Assembly: GCA_024638465.1 (NCBI GenBank)
Contig: JAHEKF010000002.1
Location: 18,678-82,677, forward strand
Length of the DNA: 64,000 nt
Direction of reading: 5' to 3'
DNA from: Rhodospirillaceae bacterium
GTDB lineage: Bacteria > Pseudomonadota > Gammaproteobacteria > Steroidobacterales > Rariloculaceae
The translations under genes and the position numbers were made by a program. This document shows positions 3,948 through 29,402 of the stretch, piece by piece (the first letter of the stretch is position 1; every line of letters begins with the position of its first letter). Under the pieces are notes generated by a model. The model saw only the letters and a list, made by a program, of their open reading frames with translations. It searched no databases and was not told the DNA's origin.

Positions 3948-4020
3948 GATGTCGTCCTCAGGCGATGTTCGTCGCCGCTGTCTTAAAGAGCGCCGCCAGG
4001 TCGGCTTCTGCCCAAGCTAG

Positions 4021-15638: not shown

Positions 15639-16253
15639 TCAGGCGTTTGGTGACCGCAGGGCGAGGATACGATTCTGCCTGTGGAAATCCACATCGGGAT
15701 GCAGCGCTACGAGCCGCAATGCGCGCGTCAGCTCGAAATCGTCCTCGAGAATGAGCGACTGCCAAATCGACTCGGATCCCGAGAAATCGCAGTGAATCAC
15801 TGACGACGAGGTGGCGATGAGCGGCAACTCGGACAGTGCCGTCGTCCGCAGCCTCCGCAAGGTTCGCGCAGACAATCGCAGGAACAGGCGTGCCTGAAAG
15901 TCCCTTCTGCGACTCATATTCCATGCGCTGTGCAATATCGTCAGCGCCAGCGAACGGCGCGAGCTCTCGAGCGGGTCCGGAATGGCCTGTTCACCGGTTA
16001 TCGCAACCTCGTCCAGCGCGATGACGAACAGGGCGCGCGGAAACTCCGCGATAGACTCGAGTTTCGACATCGGGAAATCGCGCAGTTTTCTCGCCAGCGC
16101 GGGCGTCAGACCGAAGCCGCTGACACCTTCTCGCGCAGCGGATCTCAAGTGAATCAGTAACAGCAGATTGAGCTCCTGCAGCTCTTCGATTTCGTCTGAG
16201 TCGGGTGGCGCGTAATGCACGGTTTCGAGCCTGTTTTCGTTCGGAATTACCAT
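15639..16253 (-). CDS. Hypothetical regulator with a weak FlhD-like N-terminal half
   Basis: 204 aa. Residues about 28-82 (LNLLLLIHLRS...FGLTPALARKL...KLESIAEF...ALD) align by eye without large gaps to E. coli FlhD (INLSYLLLAQR...LGINEEMATTL...VKLAETN...FRFD), at roughly 20-25% identity. Divergent from an FlhC-like gene. Confidence 0.4.
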   Translation of the reverse strand: MVIPNENRLETVHYAPPDSDEIEELQELNLLLLIHLRSAAREGVSGFGLTPALARKLRDFPMSKLESIAEFPRALFVIALDEVAITGEQAIPDPLESSRRSLALTILHSAWNMSRRRDFQARLFLRLSARTLRRLRTTALSELPLIATSSSVIHCDFSGSESIWQSLILEDDFELTRALRLVALHPDVDFHRQNRILALRSPNA

Positions 16254-16281
16254 ATATGGTCCTAAAGTACCATATATGGTA
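16248..16281. promoter_or_regulatory. Twin palindromic operator: two copies of TACCATATATGGT, 20 bp apart
   Basis: ACCATATATGGT occurs at 16249-16260 and 16269-16280. The second copy extends to the perfect 14-bp palindrome TACCATATATGGTA. The first copy contains the ATG of the minus-strand gene. Confidence 0.55.
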
Positions 16282-16341
16282 ATAGTAGGCTAAGTCGACG
16301 AATCTGGACGATTCACCTTAAAAGCCCCAAAAGAGGTCCCT

Positions 16342-16923
16342 ATGAGAGCGACTGACAACCGTTATCGCGGCGAAAAAGCCCGTTTCGAACTCGCGATGAG
16401 AATGATTCAACACGAGGCTCGAACCGGAACAATTCGATATTTCACCGGCCTGAGCGACGATCGTATTCGCAAGCTCTACACGAGCTATTTCAAATTCAAC
16501 GATGCGGCGACCGTTAAGCGACGGCGTGGCAAGTCTCCTACGCAGATCGCACCGCTCGTTCAGACCCCGGAACGAGCGCTCGAGTCCGGTGTTTTCGTGA
16601 GCCTGCTCAGGGCGAACGGCCTCGTTGCTGACGACGACACGGAAGGCCCCGCGCTGCAGGGAAACATCGATCTCGGACATCGTTTCTGCCAGTGCTTCGA
16701 AACGCACCTGTTGGTCGTTCCCGACCCCGTTCTCTCGTTTGAGTGGGGCTGGAATCTCCTGCTCGGCATTCGCCGGGGCGATGAGCTTGGCGTGACACGG
16801 TGTCCCGAATGCGCGACGAGCTACGTCTATGATCTGCTCGCGCTGCCGCGAAGCGCCTGCCCGGCGTGCATCTCGATAAAACACGACCACTACGGTCCAC
16901 GCGTCGCTTCGTCTATGATTTGA
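16342..16923 (+). CDS. FlhC-like transcriptional regulator (zinc-ribbon type)
   Basis: AAGAGG RBS. ARFELAMRMIQHEARTGTIRYFTGLSDDRIRKLY aligns with E. coli FlhC [35 protein letters not shown]. C-terminal CPEC...CPAC sits where the FlhC four-Cys Zn site lies. Confidence 0.6.
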   Translation: MRATDNRYRGEKARFELAMRMIQHEARTGTIRYFTGLSDDRIRKLYTSYFKFNDAATVKRRRGKSPTQIAPLVQTPERALESGVFVSLLRANGLVADDDTEGPALQGNIDLGHRFCQCFETHLLVVPDPVLSFEWGWNLLLGIRRGDELGVTRCPECATSYVYDLLALPRSACPACISIKHDHYGPRVASSMI

Positions 16924-16926
16924 CCT

Positions 16927-17673
16927 GTGTGTCTCGCAGCCTTTTCGCTCCGCTCGTCGGCGCAATATCCGCTCGTATTCGCCGCCAACCGCGACGAGCT
17001 GCACGAACGCCCGAGTTCGGCGGCAGCGTGGTGGGAAGACGAGCCAGGCATTTTCGGTGGCCGGGATCTGGTCGCGGGAGGGACCTGGCTTGCCGTAGAC
17101 CGCCGTGGCCGCCTTGCGGCGGTTACGAATTTTCGTGAAGAGATTCGCGCAGAGTACGAGCGATCCCGGGGGGATCTGGTTCGCGACTACCTGACCGCCG
17201 ACATCGCGGCCGTCGACTATCTGGCATCGCTACGGGAAAACGAGTTCGAGTACGGACCTTACAACCTCATTCTCTTCGACGGTGCCGCAGTCCATCTCGG
17301 AAGCAATCGGTCGCGGGGTCGCAGTCTCGATTCGGGCATTCATGCGGTGAGCAATACGCGTTTCGATACGCCATGGCCGAAAGTCGGTTATGCCCGCTCC
17401 CGGCTCGCTGCCAGCCTCGAAGAACCCGATCCCGAGTTCCCGCTGTTCGAATTTCTGACGGACGAGTCCTATCACGGCGAGGACGATGATGCCGACATGA
17501 CGACGAGAATTCGTTCCACGGTATTCATTAATGACGCTCGCTACGGCACACGCGCATCCACCATAATTCTTCTAACCAGCGACGGGCAGTTGCGGTTTAA
17601 AGAACGACGCTTCGGTGCAAGCGGCGAAGTGCTCGGTGAAAACGCGGAATCGTTCAGGATAGCCGGGTCCTGA
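16927..17673 (+). CDS. NRDE family protein (TANGO2-like, Ntn-hydrolase-like fold)
   Basis: GTG start gives N-terminal MCL (Cys2). The AANRDE motif is present. Starts 3 nt after the FlhC-like stop. Confidence 0.75.
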   Translation: MCLAAFSLRSSAQYPLVFAANRDELHERPSSAAAWWEDEPGIFGGRDLVAGGTWLAVDRRGRLAAVTNFREEIRAEYERSRGDLVRDYLTADIAAVDYLASLRENEFEYGPYNLILFDGAAVHLGSNRSRGRSLDSGIHAVSNTRFDTPWPKVGYARSRLAASLEEPDPEFPLFEFLTDESYHGEDDDADMTTRIRSTVFINDARYGTRASTIILLTSDGQLRFKERRFGASGEVLGENAESFRIAGS

Positions 17674-18316
17674 GCCAACGGCTTATGTCGGCGATCTCCT
17701 CGGGACAGACGGAGTGGGGCATCGGATAGCTCTGCCATTCTACCCCGTACCCTCGCTGTAGCAGCGCTTCCCGTGATACGAGCCCGAGCTTCTCCGGGAG
17801 GACGTTGTCGACCGAGCCGTGCGCCATGAAGATCGGGGTGTTCTGATTCGCCGCATGCTTTTCGTCGTCGAGCGTCCAGCTGAGCGGCAGATAAGTCGAC
17901 AGCGCAAGGATACCCGCGAGTGGTTCCGGATGCCGGAGCCCCTGGTGCAATGCGATCGCACCCCCCTGGGAGAAGCCCGCTAAAAAAATGCGCTCGGACG
18001 CGATTCCGCGATCTCGCTCCGCATCGATCAGCGCTGCGACCGCGGCAGCGCTTTCGCGGATACCCGCCTCGTCCTCGATGTCGGTTCGCGCCAGAGACAG
18101 GATGTCGTACCACGCGCGCATGCGGGCGCCGTTATTGATCGTGACGGCCCGGATCGGCGCATGGGGAAAAACGAAGCGGACGTCGCAGGGCAGCCCGAGC
18201 TGCGGTGCGATCGGCGCGAAGTCGTTGCCGTCCGCACCGAGGCCGTGGAGCCAGATGATACTGGCTTCCGGTGCATCGCCGGTTGCGATCTCGATTGTCT
18301 CCAGTCCTGCGCCCAC
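17654..18316 (-). CDS. Alpha/beta hydrolase, carboxylesterase/phospholipase family
   Basis: WLHGLGADG, nucleophile elbow GFSQGG, and a late HGSVDNV plus H motif. 220 aa. Confidence 0.8.
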   Translation of the reverse strand: MGAGLETIEIATGDAPEASIIWLHGLGADGNDFAPIAPQLGLPCDVRFVFPHAPIRAVTINNGARMRAWYDILSLARTDIEDEAGIRESAAAVAALIDAERDRGIASERIFLAGFSQGGAIALHQGLRHPEPLAGILALSTYLPLSWTLDDEKHAANQNTPIFMAHGSVDNVLPEKLGLVSREALLQRGYGVEWQSYPMPHSVCPEEIADISRWLRTRLS

Positions 18317-18348
18317 GGTGCCTCCGAGCGGATTTCAGCGCTTGCAAT

Positions 18349-18380
18349 AATTGCGCATAAGATCTATCCTATGCGCAATT
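18349..18380. promoter_or_regulatory. Candidate ArgR operator (inverted repeat with ARG-box-like AT-rich flanks)
   Basis: AATTGCGCAT (18349-18358) and ATGCGCAATT (18371-18380) form a perfect 10-bp inverted repeat with a 12-nt spacer. The flanks TGCAATAATT and TTTTATTCAT resemble ARG-box halves. Confidence 0.45.
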
Positions 18381-18400
18381 TTATTCATCGAGTTCAGCCC

Positions 18401-18865
18401 ATGCCCAGCGCCGTTGCCCAACAGCAGGCCCGCCGCCGCGCGATCGCCGCGATCCTGAAGCAGAATACGATCGTCCGTCAGACGGAGCTCGTGAAGCTGC
18501 TTCGGAACGAGGGTTATCACGCGACCCAGTCCAGCGTCAGCCGAGACCTCAAGGACATGGGCGCTGCGAAGCTCAACTCCGGTTACAGCTTGCCGGAACA
18601 ACTCAACGGCGACAACGAGGCTGCGCTCGCGTCAGTCGCCGAGTTCGTGCGCGACATTCGCCCGGCCGGACCCAATATGCTCGTCATCACGACCGCAATC
18701 GGCGCAGCGCAGCGAGTCGCACTCACGCTCGATCGAATCAACTGGCCCGAGATTGTCGGCACGCTGTCGGGGGACGACACAATATTTATCGCGACCACGG
18801 GCGCGTCTCCGCAGCGGCGGGTTAGCTCGCGGCTGCGCCAGAAACTTGCGAAGGCTAAATCATGA
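18401..18865 (+). CDS. argR: Arginine repressor
   Basis: IVRQTELVKLLRNEGYHATQSSVSRDLKDMGA winged-helix region and a C-terminal GDDTIFI motif. The start at 18401 gives an E. coli-like length; ATG 18371 is an alternative. Confidence 0.85.
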   Translation: MPSAVAQQQARRRAIAAILKQNTIVRQTELVKLLRNEGYHATQSSVSRDLKDMGAAKLNSGYSLPEQLNGDNEAALASVAEFVRDIRPAGPNMLVITTAIGAAQRVALTLDRINWPEIVGTLSGDDTIFIATTGASPQRRVSSRLRQKLAKAKS

Positions 18866-20064
18866 GTACAGATCCGATCATTCTGGCGTTCTCGGGCGGG
18901 CTCGACACATCGTTCTGTGTGCCCTGGCTAAAGGAAACCTACGACCGGCCTGTCGTTACTGCGACAGTTAATACCGGAGGCCTGGACGAGGCCGCGACGA
19001 CCGCGCTCGCCGAACGTGCCGGACAACTCGGCGCCAGCGATCACGTTCAGATAGAGGCGCGCGACGAATTCTTCGACGACGTCCTCAAGTTCCTGATCAT
19101 GGGGAACGTGCGACGTGGCCAGCTCTACCCGCTGTGCGTCGGTGCCGAACGCGGAATTCAGGCTGCCTACCTCGCAAAACTCGCGCGAGACCGCGGCGCC
19201 GGGACGGTCGCCCACGGCTGTACAGCCGCGGGTAATGACCAGGTTCGCTTCGAAATCATTCTTAAGGCGCTGGCTCCGGAGCTGGAGGTGCTCGCACCGG
19301 TTCGCGACAACTCCTTTCAGCGCGACGAGCAGCTCGCCTATCTCGCAAAACACGGAATGCCGCCACCCGCGGCGGGTTCCGCTTATTCGATCAATCGCGG
19401 ACTCTGGGGAACAACGATAGGCGGAACCGAGACCCTCGATTCCGTCGAGTCGATTCCCGAGTCGGCCTGGGTCCTTAGCAGCGGCGCATTCGACACGCCT
19501 GCCGAGCCCGAAGAGCTTGCGATCGGGTTCGCCAAAGGCGTGCCGAGCGCATTAAACGGTGAGCCGCTTGCTCCCGTTGCGCTGACCGAGAAACTCGAAA
19601 CGATCGGCGCTCGTTTCGGTATCGGTCGTGGCATTCATCTCGGCGACACGATTCTCGGTACGAAGGGCCGGGTCGCATTCGAGGCGCCCGCTGCCGAAAT
19701 TCTTCTGACCGCTCACCGTGAGCTCGAGAAGCTCACGCTGACGGGCTTGCAGCAGCGTATTAAGGAACCCGTGAGCCTGAACTACGGAGATCTCGTCCAC
19801 GAAGGCAAGCAGCTCGAACCTGCATGCCGTGACATCGAGGCGTTGTTTACCTCGTCGCAGGAACGAGTTACCGGCACTGTCCATTGCGTTTTGCGCCCCG
19901 GAAACGTTTTCGTTACGGGTGTCGAATCGCCGCATTCGCTGATGGCGGCGAGCCGCGGCAAGTATGGCGAAGCTGCGGGCGAATGGACGCCCGCCGACGC
20001 GCTCGGATTCTCCCGCATCCTGTCGCTTCCCGGCATGCTGCACACGCGGGCGAAAGGAGACTGA
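18862..20064 (+). CDS. argG: Argininosuccinate synthase
   Basis: AFSGGLDTS ATP-binding motif. 400 aa. ATGA overlap with the argR stop. Confidence 0.9.
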   Translation: MSTDPIILAFSGGLDTSFCVPWLKETYDRPVVTATVNTGGLDEAATTALAERAGQLGASDHVQIEARDEFFDDVLKFLIMGNVRRGQLYPLCVGAERGIQAAYLAKLARDRGAGTVAHGCTAAGNDQVRFEIILKALAPELEVLAPVRDNSFQRDEQLAYLAKHGMPPPAAGSAYSINRGLWGTTIGGTETLDSVESIPESAWVLSSGAFDTPAEPEELAIGFAKGVPSALNGEPLAPVALTEKLETIGARFGIGRGIHLGDTILGTKGRVAFEAPAAEILLTAHRELEKLTLTGLQQRIKEPVSLNYGDLVHEGKQLEPACRDIEALFTSSQERVTGTVHCVLRPGNVFVTGVESPHSLMAASRGKYGEAAGEWTPADALGFSRILSLPGMLHTRAKGD

Positions 20065-26699: not shown

Positions 26700-29402
26700 A
26701 TGCGGTGCAAGATGGCGACTAAACCGTTCGTACTCGTCGACGGATCCTCATATCTTTTTCGCGCCTATCACGCGCTGCCCGATTTTTCGTCGAGCAAGGG
26801 CGAGCCGACCGGTGCGATCTTCGGCGTGCTGAACATGCTCAACAAACTCGTCGACGACTACGATCCGGAGAACATCGCAGTCGTTTTCGATGCACCCGGA
26901 AAAACGTTTCGCGATGATCTCTATTCCGACTACAAGGCGAACCGGCCGCCGATGCCCGAGGACCTGCGTCCGCAGATCGAACCGCTGATTCAGGCGATTG
27001 AAGCGATCGGGATACCGGTCATCCGGGTCAAGGGCGTCGAGGCCGACGACGTGATCGGGACGCTCGCGACGCGAGCCGCCGCCGACGGCCGCGAGACAGT
27101 GATATCGACTTCGGATAAGGACATGGCCCAGCTCGTCAACGAGCACGTGACGCTCGTTAACACGATGAGTAATACGAAGCTGGACGAAGGTGGCGTTGCC
27201 GAAAAATTCGGTGTCAATCCCGATCAGATCATCGACTACCTTGCGCTGGTAGGAGACAGTTCAGACAACATTCCCGGCATCCCCGGCGTCGGGCCGAAGA
27301 CTGCTGCGAAATGGCTGGCCGAGCATGGCGACCTGGACACGATCAAGGCCGAAGCCGACAGCGTTCCAGGCAAGGTCGGCGAGAATCTGCGGAACTCGCT
27401 GGATCGGCTTCCGCTGTATAAGGAACTCACGACGATCGTTTGCGACGTAGAACTTCCGCTGTCGCCAGCCGAGCTGGTACTACGGGAACCCGACGTCGAC
27501 CGAGTCCGAAAACTTTACGACCGTCTCGAACTCAGAAGTCTGCTGCGCCGAATCGGCGAACTCGACGAGCAGCAAGAGCAAGCGTCAATGGAACCCGGCG
27601 TCGACTACGACACGGTGCTGACCCAAGCGGCCCTGAACGAGTGGCTGGAGCGTATCGAGGGCGTCGAACTCGTCGCCCTCGATACTGAAACGACCAGCCT
27701 CGATTACATGCAGGCCGAGATCGTCGGCCTCTCTCTTGCCGTTGTAGCGGGAAATGCGGCTTATATCCCGCTTGCCCACAGCTACCCGGGCGCGCCGGAT
27801 CAGCTCAACCGCGAGGAAGTTCTCGCGCGCATGAAACCGTGGCTCGAGAGCGATTCCCCGAAGCTCGGACATCATCTGAAATACGATGCGCACGTGCTGC
27901 GAAATCACGATATCGCACTCGGTGGAATCGCATTCGACTCAATGCTCGAATCCTTCGTGCTGGATTCGACAGCTACGAGACACGATATGGATTCCGTCGC
28001 GAATAAATACCTCGGAGTCAAAACGACGAAATACGAAGACGTCGCAGGCAAGGGAGCGAAGCAGCTGCGATTCGACGAAGTCGACATCGAAGTCGCGTCG
28101 GCCTATGCGGCACAGGACGCGGACATTACGTTTCAGTTGCACGAGACACTCTGGCCGAAACTTCAGGAAGTTCCGTCGTTGGCCAAGCTCTATCTCGAGA
28201 TCGAGCAGCCGCTCGTCGAAGTACTGCGCAAGATGGAATACCTCGGCGTACTCGTCGATGCCGAAATGCTCAAGCAGCAGAGTCAGGAACTTGCAGAATC
28301 AATGGCGGCTACCGAAAAACGGGTACACGAGATGGCAGGCGGCCCGTTTAATCTCGCTTCACCGAAGCAGCTGCAGGAGATTCTTTACGATCGGCTGGGA
28401 CTCCCGGTGCTGAGCAAGACACCCAAGGGCCAGCCGTCAACGGCGGAGAGTGTGCTGCAGGATCTGGCTGAGGAACATGAGCTGCCGAAGGCGATACTCG
28501 AGTACCGTGGGATCGCGAAACTAAAGTCGACCTACACGGACAAACTACCGCTCGAAATCGATCCGCGAACCGGTCGAATCCACACGTCTTATCACCAGGC
28601 CGTCGCGGCGACCGGCCGTCTTTCATCGACGGACCCGAATCTGCAGAACATCCCGATCCGAACGCCGGAGGGTAGGCGCATACGTCAGGCGTTCATCGCG
28701 CCGGAAGGCTACCGGCTGCTCGCTGCCGATTATTCGCAGATCGAGTTGCGCATCATGGCGCATCTATCCGAGGACGCCGGATTACTCGCGGCTTTCGCCG
28801 CCGATACCGACATTCATCGCGCGACGGCTGCGGAGGTCTTCGGGATCGAGCCGGCAGACGTCTCCAACGACGAACGGCGCTCGGCCAAGGCGATCAACTT
28901 CGGATTGATTTACGGGATGTCGGCGTTCGGTCTCGGGCGACAGCTCGGAATCGGACGCAACCAGGCGCAGGAATACGTCGATCTCTATTTCGACCGCTAT
29001 CCGGGAGTCAAAGCCTATATGGATGGCACCCGCGAGCGCGCACGCGAAGACGGTTTCGTCGCAACGGTTTACGGCCGACGTCTGTACCTGCCCGAGATCG
29101 ACTCGCGCAATCATCAACGTCGCCAGTATGCCGAACGCAGCGCTATCAATGCGCCCATGCAGGGCTCGGCGGCGGACATTATCAAGCGAGCGATGATAGA
29201 CGTTGATCGCTGGCTGGCATCATCAGGTGCCGATGCGCGCGTCATCATGCAGGTCCACGACGAACTCGTGCTCGAGGTCGCGGAAAGCAATGCCGAAGAG
29301 ATCGCCGTCGAGATCGCGAAACTCATGGAAAGCGCTGCCGATCTCAGGGTGCCGCTCAAAGCCGACTACGGACTCGGCGCCAACTGGGATGAGGCGCACT
29401 AG
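26700..29402 (+). CDS. polA: DNA polymerase I
   Basis: A 5'-3' exonuclease N-terminus (LVDGSSYLFRAYHAL), a 3'-5' exonuclease region, and polymerase motifs (DYSQIELR, QVHDELV). The start could be ATG 26712. Confidence 0.95.
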   Translation: MRCKMATKPFVLVDGSSYLFRAYHALPDFSSSKGEPTGAIFGVLNMLNKLVDDYDPENIAVVFDAPGKTFRDDLYSDYKANRPPMPEDLRPQIEPLIQAIEAIGIPVIRVKGVEADDVIGTLATRAAADGRETVISTSDKDMAQLVNEHVTLVNTMSNTKLDEGGVAEKFGVNPDQIIDYLALVGDSSDNIPGIPGVGPKTAAKWLAEHGDLDTIKAEADSVPGKVGENLRNSLDRLPLYKELTTIVCDVELPLSPAELVLREPDVDRVRKLYDRLELRSLLRRIGELDEQQEQASMEPGVDYDTVLTQAALNEWLERIEGVELVALDTETTSLDYMQAEIVGLSLAVVAGNAAYIPLAHSYPGAPDQLNREEVLARMKPWLESDSPKLGHHLKYDAHVLRNHDIALGGIAFDSMLESFVLDSTATRHDMDSVANKYLGVKTTKYEDVAGKGAKQLRFDEVDIEVASAYAAQDADITFQLHETLWPKLQEVPSLAKLYLEIEQPLVEVLRKMEYLGVLVDAEMLKQQSQELAESMAATEKRVHEMAGGPFNLASPKQLQEILYDRLGLPVLSKTPKGQPSTAESVLQDLAEEHELPKAILEYRGIAKLKSTYTDKLPLEIDPRTGRIHTSYHQAVAATGRLSSTDPNLQNIPIRTPEGRRIRQAFIAPEGYRLLAADYSQIELRIMAHLSEDAGLLAAFAADTDIHRATAAEVFGIEPADVSNDERRSAKAINFGLIYGMSAFGLGRQLGIGRNQAQEYVDLYFDRYPGVKAYMDGTRERAREDGFVATVYGRRLYLPEIDSRNHQRRQYAERSAINAPMQGSAADIIKRAMIDVDRWLASSGADARVIMQVHDELVLEVAESNAEEIAVEIAKLMESAADLRVPLKADYGLGANWDEAH

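Follow-up and report, generated by a model that had tools for sequence, protein, structure and literature searches.

The FlhDC family of transcriptional regulators is known as the flagellar master switch, i.e., FlhD4C2 of Enterobacterales and Betaproteobacteria (structures 2AVU and 8J56), and as a group of transfer activators of resistance-carrying mobile elements, and in both settings its members are co-transcribed activators. In our literature search, FlhDC-like regulators outside flagella were found only on mobile elements (AcaCD, SetCD, SgaCD, and BisDC), and no paper was found that links FlhDC to Woeseia or the Rariloculaceae or describes a divergent FlhD/FlhC pair. The current study concerns a pair of this kind in a 64,000-nucleotide (nt) stretch of contig JAHEKF010000002.1 (GenBank assembly GCA_024638465.1), which as a whole is referred to as the window. 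Two AT-rich palindromes, here called boxes, are located between an FlhD-like gene on the minus strand and an FlhC-like gene on the plus strand. Judged from the comparison of orthologous sequences, this conserved element very probably represents a genuine protein-binding operator. We put the probability at roughly one in two that the boxes form a tandem operator with the half-sites ACCA-N4-TGGT, which would be bound by the FlhD/FlhC-like complex and mediate negative feedback.

The motif ACCATATATGGT occurs exactly at 16249-16260 (box 1) and at 16269-16280, with no other match in the 64-kb window even at two mismatches, and the second copy lies within the perfect 14-bp palindrome TACCATATATGGTA at 16268-16281 (box 2). 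Both copies had been pointed out in the original prediction and are borne out by the sequence, as are their start-to-start distance of 20 bp, which places them on roughly the same helix face (the box centers are 20 bp apart as well), and the AT richness of the sites in GC-rich DNA, with a local GC content that dips to 0.48 in surroundings of about 0.60. A repeat finder extended the direct repeat to 16 nt (16245-16260/16265-16280; 94%, period of 20 bp) and returned an inverted repeat of 18 nt with 94% complementarity across both boxes. The dual pattern ACCA-N4-TGGT-N8-ACCA-N4-TGGT is present once in the window, compared with 0.01 occurrences expected from shuffled sequences. The spacer between the boxes, CCTAAAGT, occupies positions 16261-16268.

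Orthologous loci were collected by scanning a genome collection with the FlhC-like alignment, which provided 80 loci from distinct species-level metagenome-assembled genomes of "Candidatus Rariloculaceae," Woeseiaceae, and unclassified Gammaproteobacteria. The upstream regions of 64 loci, including that of the window, could be aligned, and per-column conservation was determined from 54 aligned regions. Synteny is nearly constant in the 80 loci (ABC-2 transporter <- FlhD-like <-|-> FlhC-like -> TANGO2), and the locus is part of the core chromosome and not of a mobile element. The original prediction had placed the boxes in an 88-bp gap between divergent FlhD-like and FlhC-like genes; the divergent arrangement is correct, but the value of 88 bp requires the longest open reading frame (ORF) on the minus strand. 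The two genes are divergent and separated by 88-121 bp in the window and, with the exception of L007, in every orthologous locus whose upstream sequence is long enough for a judgment.

Absence of the motif from orthologous intergenic regions had been named beforehand as evidence against an operator, and it is present there: both boxes are kept in 49 of the 64 alignable regions, which come from dozens of uncultured Gammaproteobacteria of marine and soil origin and span lineages with FlhC-like identities of only 56-85%, and wherever both boxes occur in these regions, they are 20 bp apart. Among the box-bearing loci are those of the complete chromosome OY969712.1 (L041) and of contig CAWFPH010000002.1 (L029). 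Box 1, with the orthologue consensus [G/A]CCATATATGGT, is the better conserved of the two and shows 81-100% conservation at all twelve positions; CCA-N4-TGG was found in 46 of the 49 box-bearing loci and the central TATA in 41 of them. Box 2 has the consensus TACCA-nnnn-TGGt, with arms that are conserved at 96-100% (ACCA) and 89-98% (TGG) and a variable center that drifts between TTAG, TATA, TTTA, CTAA, and AATA. Dyad symmetry of the boxes holds in 87% of alignment cells. The spacer (consensus CCTAAAaT) is conserved at 83-98% in six of its eight positions and is kept even in lineages without the palindromes.

Related boxes are also present in the same intergenic region of Woeseiaceae, where a distance of 31 bp separates cCCATtTAtGGA (position of about -69) from ACTATATATGGT (about -38), and some genomes contain further boxes 20 bp from these. 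The cultured Woeseia oceani has this 31-bp variant. The FlhC-like proteins of Woeseiaceae are about 50% identical to that of the window, and their divergent neighbor is a recognizable homologue of the FlhD-like family (hhalign E value of 1.9e-6). The tree of FlhC-like proteins indicates an ancestral dual box, with losses in two clades, L008-L026 and L038/L046/L050 (L027 being degenerate), and in L007, in which the FlhD-like gene is almost wholly deleted and both boxes are gone. The first of these clades belongs to the Rariloculaceae (L008-L010, L015, L018, L021-L023, and L026) and keeps both genes, as well as, about 130 nt upstream of position 4001, CCTAAAATACCA (minus-strand TGGTATTTT) in nine of nine loci; it represents a natural operator-free form of the locus. 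In locus L006 (3731-4001), exactly one 20-bp unit, consisting of box 1 and the spacer, is deleted and the FlhD-like gene is reduced to a frameshifted ORF of 56 amino acids (aa); box 2 as a perfect palindrome, TAGGCT (see below), and the FlhC-like gene are intact. The deletion looks like slippage between the two direct repeats and is possibly an assembly error.

Near-invariant arms together with a freely drifting box 2 center are expected of a protein dimer that recognizes two half-sites. The two dyad-symmetric sites stand in a fixed, near-integral helical register (20 bp; 31 bp in Woeseiaceae) that is conserved in orthologues, and the combination of conserved arms around a free center, 87% dyad symmetry, and an invariant register argues for a dimer of dimers on one helix face. 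With respect to the dimer-of-dimers operator proposed in the original prediction, the two-dimer anatomy between divergent genes has stood up in the orthologues, with the amendment that the Woeseiaceae exhibit a related layout with a spacing of 31 bp.

The site is specific to this locus in the DNA scanned. When 620 kb of fetched DNA was searched with a position weight matrix of the boxes (cutoff of 10 bits), 122 hits were obtained, 116 of which were located within 160 nt upstream of the FlhC-like start, i.e., in one intergenic region; no convincing site was found elsewhere in the window or in these 620 kb of loci, and no regulon emerged. Dual boxes with a non-orthologous spacer were also sought across metagenomes. 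Of the 11 hits obtained, four represent the same locus on the other strand, with FlhC-like or FlhD-like genes next to them, and seven are located on unrelated low-GC contigs, e.g., upstream of a winged helix-turn-helix-nucleotidyltransferase gene; among GC-rich contigs, only the FlhD-like/FlhC-like locus was retrieved. Two unrelated low-GC metagenome contigs (L082, 3321-3350; L085, 280-309) share the sequence ccatatatggttaaNattaaccatWtttggtWtataa, and the L082 copy is positioned just upstream of a winged-helix plus nucleotidyltransferase ORF, which represents a similar two-box-plus-TATAA layout in a different system.

Promoter-like signals seem to form a layer of conservation that is separate from the palindromes. 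On the plus strand, TAGGCT (TAnnnT) at 16286-16291, 5 bp past box 2, is the putative -10 element of the FlhC-like promoter; T16286, A16287, and T16291 are invariant in the 54 aligned loci, the three middle bases vary, and a recognizable -35 element is missing. The TAnnnT signature was found in all 49 box-bearing and all four degenerate loci, and in the palindrome-free clade GCTAATAT a few bases along replaces TAGGCT. On the minus strand, TGGTACTTT (TGnTAnnnT) at 16272-16264 is a putative extended -10 element of the FlhD-like promoter. The signature TGGTAnnnT is present in 47 of the 49 box-bearing loci, in nine of nine loci without both palindromes, and in three of four degenerate ones, and hence in 12 of 13 loci that have lost the palindromes and possess both genes. 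From the two signatures, we infer divergent, interleaved core promoters with predicted starts near 16298 (plus) and near 16257 (minus), the latter inside box 1. Layouts typical of sigma-28, sigma-54, and MerR-type spacers were rejected by eye because their spacing or bases do not fit, and the ends of short Logan contigs were rejected as transcript ends, as they represent assembly breaks.

Under these predicted starts, box 1 would cover the FlhD-like transcription start from +1 to about +9 and would be centered at about -43.5 of the FlhC-like promoter. Box 2 would be situated between the two -10 elements, with its center at about -17.5 of the FlhD-like and about -23.5 of the FlhC-like promoter.

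The start of the FlhD-like gene probably differs from the one first assumed. The longest ORF (15639-16253, minus) begins with the ATG at 16253-16251 in box 1, which had been taken as the start codon, and this codon is present, but most orthologues start with ATG about 33 nt further inside, where the window reads CAC on the plus strand, i.e., GTG at 16220-16218 on the minus strand. The motif CCATATATGG by construction holds an ATG on either strand. At the protein level, the 10-11 extra residues of longer gene calls lack conservation, the homologues tend to measure 193-197 aa in agreement with the GTG start, and direct reading of L001 and L003 revealed an in-frame stop between the box ATG and the conserved start. 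Judged from these data, translation probably does not begin at the ATG in box 1, and the FlhD-like gene probably extends from 16220 to 15639 on the minus strand (193 aa). Likewise, the AGGA between the boxes, formerly regarded as the Shine-Dalgarno sequence, exists, but the conserved start follows a purine run instead: AAAACAGG at 16230-16237 (minus; consensus AAAARGG) is the putative Shine-Dalgarno region, precedes the aligned start position by 5-9 nt, and includes T16234-T16236 with 92-100% conservation. With a minus-strand transcription start near 16257, the inter-box AGGA would not be transcribed.

The assignment of the flanking genes to the FlhD and FlhC families was based on profiles, homologues, and predicted folds. 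No Pfam match of its own was obtained for the FlhD-like protein of the window, and a precomputed FlhD match (PF05247) is recorded for 29 of 42 database homologues. Its family profile matches FlhD of Cupriavidus necator (8J56_A) with an E value of 0.006 over residues 7-87. The AlphaFold2 (AF2) model built from the family alignment reached a predicted local distance difference test score (pLDDT) of 82 and a predicted template-modeling score of 0.79, and Foldseek ranked five independent FlhD entries (8J56, 1G8E, 4ES4, 5HXG, and 2AVU) among the top matches, with target-normalized template-modeling (TM) scores of 0.63-0.76 for four entries and 0.43 for 2AVU, Foldseek E values of >1, and a fold match that covers only about half of the protein. 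The model consists of two similar helical halves (residues 8-67 and 83-143), which resemble each other weakly (hhalign E value of 0.0026, probability of 12%). Judged from the model, the FlhD-like protein may represent a fused tandem FlhD, i.e., a pseudo-dimer.

The FlhC-like gene (16342-16923, plus; 193 aa) encodes a protein that reaches 17.2 bits on the Pfam family FlhC (PF05280), only with its N-terminal 37 residues and below the gathering threshold of 27 bits. Its Woeseiaceae orthologue (52% identity) passes this threshold with 35.2 bits over residues 10-180, and two close homologues carry a precomputed PF05280 match. The family profile matches the FlhC chain 8J56_C in two colinear segments (E value of 0.07). 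Four cysteines in the C-terminal part, C154, C157, C173, and C176, are invariant in 30 homologues and form a putative zinc site of the FlhC type, and their region is colinear with the cysteine-rich segment of 8J56_C. The AF2 model is too poor to confirm the fold (pLDDT of 53), yet its top Foldseek match is still 8J56_C (E value of 0.055, TM score of 0.25-0.29). Taken together, the labels FlhD-like and FlhC-like are justified for a pair that constitutes a distant branch of the two families.

With respect to the mechanism, a dimer-of-dimers regulator that occupies both boxes would keep RNA polymerase from the FlhD-like promoter and probably from the FlhC-like promoter as well, and negative feedback would result. 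The geometry deduced from the predicted starts appears to be of the repressor type where the FlhD-like gene is concerned, and the same probably applies to the FlhC-like gene. The most economical candidate for the binder would be the FlhD/FlhC-like complex encoded on either side, which is favored because the site is confined to the locus, has traveled together with the gene pair over a deep evolutionary distance, and is similar in style to the site of AcaCD. If the pair controls itself in this way, each half of a fused FlhD pseudo-dimer may read one half-site.

Several observations weigh against such a self-binding repressor. Two clades without the palindromes keep both genes, with FlhC-like identities of 66-74%, which indicates that the boxes are dispensable for the pair and that the binder need not be the pair itself. 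In L006, box 2 is still a perfect palindrome beside the frameshifted FlhD-like gene. FlhD4C2 is an activator that binds upstream of its promoters. Likewise, the FlhDC-family regulators AcaCD and SetCD are activators acting upstream of the promoter and not core-promoter repressors (PMC4605294). Since no second target site was found in the DNA scanned, the motif and the proteins of the pair are without an independent link. Finally, a consensus promoter scan of positions 16100-16450 revealed no canonical sigma-70 -35/-10 pair, and both promoter assignments are for this reason taken solely from the -10-like signatures.

The first three of these points at the same time speak for the main alternative, namely a real operator that is bound by an unlinked transcription factor and places the pair under an external signal: the genes that outlived the palindromes are highly conserved, box 2 of L006 outlived an intact FlhD-like gene, and the known relatives activate from upstream sites. 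The confinement of the motif to one intergenic region in all DNA scanned speaks against an unlinked regulator, as does its joint inheritance with the gene pair since before the split of Rariloculaceae and Woeseiaceae, and we consider this explanation possible but clearly short of probable. To our knowledge, none of the consensus sites of NrdR, ArgR, NtrC, FNR/CRP, and other regulators matches TACCA-N4-TGGTA, and these names can serve as leads only.

A second alternative retains the FlhD/FlhC-like complex as the binder and assigns it the role of an activator or switch. Box 1, at about -43.5, would activate the FlhC-like promoter in a class II fashion and shut the FlhD-like promoter, thereby setting the subunit ratio. 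The putative plus-strand promoter has an invariant -10 but no -35 element, as is typical where an activator is required, the members of the FlhDC family are activators, and the conservation of box 1 exceeds that of box 2. The position of box 2 at about -23.5, in the spacer of the very promoter to be activated, is unusual for an activator, however, and the geometry is wholly dependent on the predicted transcription starts; we consider this scenario unlikely.

It is very improbable that the boxes act as an RNA hairpin or DNA cruciform formed between box 1 and box 2, which would control translation or stability, e.g., by hiding the box-1 AUG and the AGGA. On either strand, the region of the window does form a hairpin with 15 bp and a folding energy of -19.4 kcal/mol (z score of about -6), in line with the long inverted repeat, but any two copies of a palindrome are automatically complementary. 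In the orthologues, minus-strand folding yields only -6.8 to -10.4 kcal/mol (z scores of -1.3 to -2.4), and of 47 sequences, 26 lack one and 35 the other of the two central pairs, in box 1 without a compensating change, while the arms never vary. Furthermore, the box-1 AUG is not the conserved start, neither transcript would hold both boxes under the predicted starts, and no Rfam match was found. The last alternative, that no dedicated regulator exists and the palindromic look is a by-product of two overlapping core promoters in an AT-rich block, is scarcely credible: the spacer, the ACCA arm of box 2, and other portions of the block do coincide with the putative -10 elements and persist without the palindromes, but box 1 and the TGG arm of box 2 are conserved at 81-100% outside any -10 or -35 position, the boxes are dyad symmetric in most of the alignment, and the 20-bp register does not vary.

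The neighborhood of the pair comprises, in the window, an ABC-2 transporter, TANGO2, an esterase, ArgR, and arginine biosynthesis genes, with no adjoining flagellar genes. The TANGO2-family gene (16927-17673, plus; PF05742, E value of 2.7e-59) begins 4 nt past the end of the FlhC-like gene, with which it is probably co-transcribed. This TANGO2/NRDE-family gene is syntenic in nearly all of the 80 loci and is the likeliest candidate for cargo co-regulated from the FlhC-like promoter. Woeseiaceae have an additional gene, NudC-like and of the NUDIX type, between the FlhC-like and TANGO2 genes (L068, 4589-5485). The ArgR gene, with both Pfam ArgR domains, is located in the stretch 18161-20064 (plus), and its real start is probably internal to the ORF of 234 aa; it lies 2 kb from the boxes, and nothing connects ArgR to them. 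It is directly followed by an ORF of 400 aa that resembles argininosuccinate synthase by eye only and then by a run of genes on the same strand up to about position 29400. In the complete window (1-64000), no tRNA genes were found, and neither were Rfam families at the gathering threshold.

Taken a step further, the observations could be combined into a non-flagellar chromosomal FlhDC branch whose genes are split into divergent units and which controls itself via a tandem palindromic operator in both core promoters, thereby sensing and correcting its own D:C subunit balance. We regard this extended picture as tentative and rather doubtful; if true, neither a direct autoregulatory circuit nor a binding geometry of the repressor type would have been described for the FlhDC family before. 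An entire order of Gammaproteobacteria that are abundant in sediment and soil (Woeseiaceae and "Candidatus Rariloculaceae") possesses a core-genome version of FlhDC with divergent genes, which is linked to genes for an ABC transporter and a TANGO2-family protein and equipped with a sharply conserved double operator. The 34-bp site, together with natural lineages that have lost it and can serve as controls, provides a precise DNA target for an uncharacterized regulator family and a route to what this regulator controls in mostly uncultured organisms. The result is a solid prediction of a regulatory site and not a new principle.

The kind of element, a transcription factor operator in a divergent promoter region, is familiar, and its novelty lies in the context of the FlhDC family. 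Tandem-palindrome operators for dimers of dimers or higher oligomers are represented by the paired ARG boxes of ArgR and by tandem NrdR boxes, which, like the element described here, consist of two AT-rich palindromes with near-integral helical spacing that overlap a promoter. They differ in the half-site sequence, and the targets at this locus are unrelated to arginine or ribonucleotide reductase. For FlhD4C2, the profile and fold searches gave the FlhD and FlhC chains of 8J56 as best matches, and the four invariant cysteines of the FlhC-like protein align with the cysteine-rich part of FlhC. In contrast to the co-transcribed flhDC operon, the genes of the locus are divergent; its FlhD-like protein of about 190 aa contains a second helical half that is missing from FlhD with about 116 aa; and the neighbors are an ABC-2 transporter and TANGO2 instead of flagellar genes. 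The FlhD4C2 site comprises paired repeats of 17-18 bp with a spacer of 10-11 bp and is located upstream of class II promoters, whereas the two palindromes described here measure 12 bp each and would cover the core promoter.

AcaCD, SetCD, and SgaCD, which are encoded on IncA/C plasmids, SXT/R391 elements, and SGI1, share with the present pair that they are non-flagellar members of the FlhDC family. AcaCD recognizes the 13-bp inverted repeat GCCC-TAAAA-GGGC, and the element ACCA-TATA-TGGT resembles it in its 4-bp, GC-containing arms around an AT-rich center (PMC4605294). FlhC-type subunits are reported to denature in the absence of their partner (PMC4605294). The known systems are borne by mobile elements and co-transcribed, whereas the pair of the window is located on the core chromosome and syntenic in 80 species. 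They activate from one repeat only, and their footprint spans about 40 bp and is located 31 bp upstream of the transcription start, whereas the locus described here exhibits two repeats of a different sequence, which are arranged in a fixed 20-bp register over the putative core promoter.

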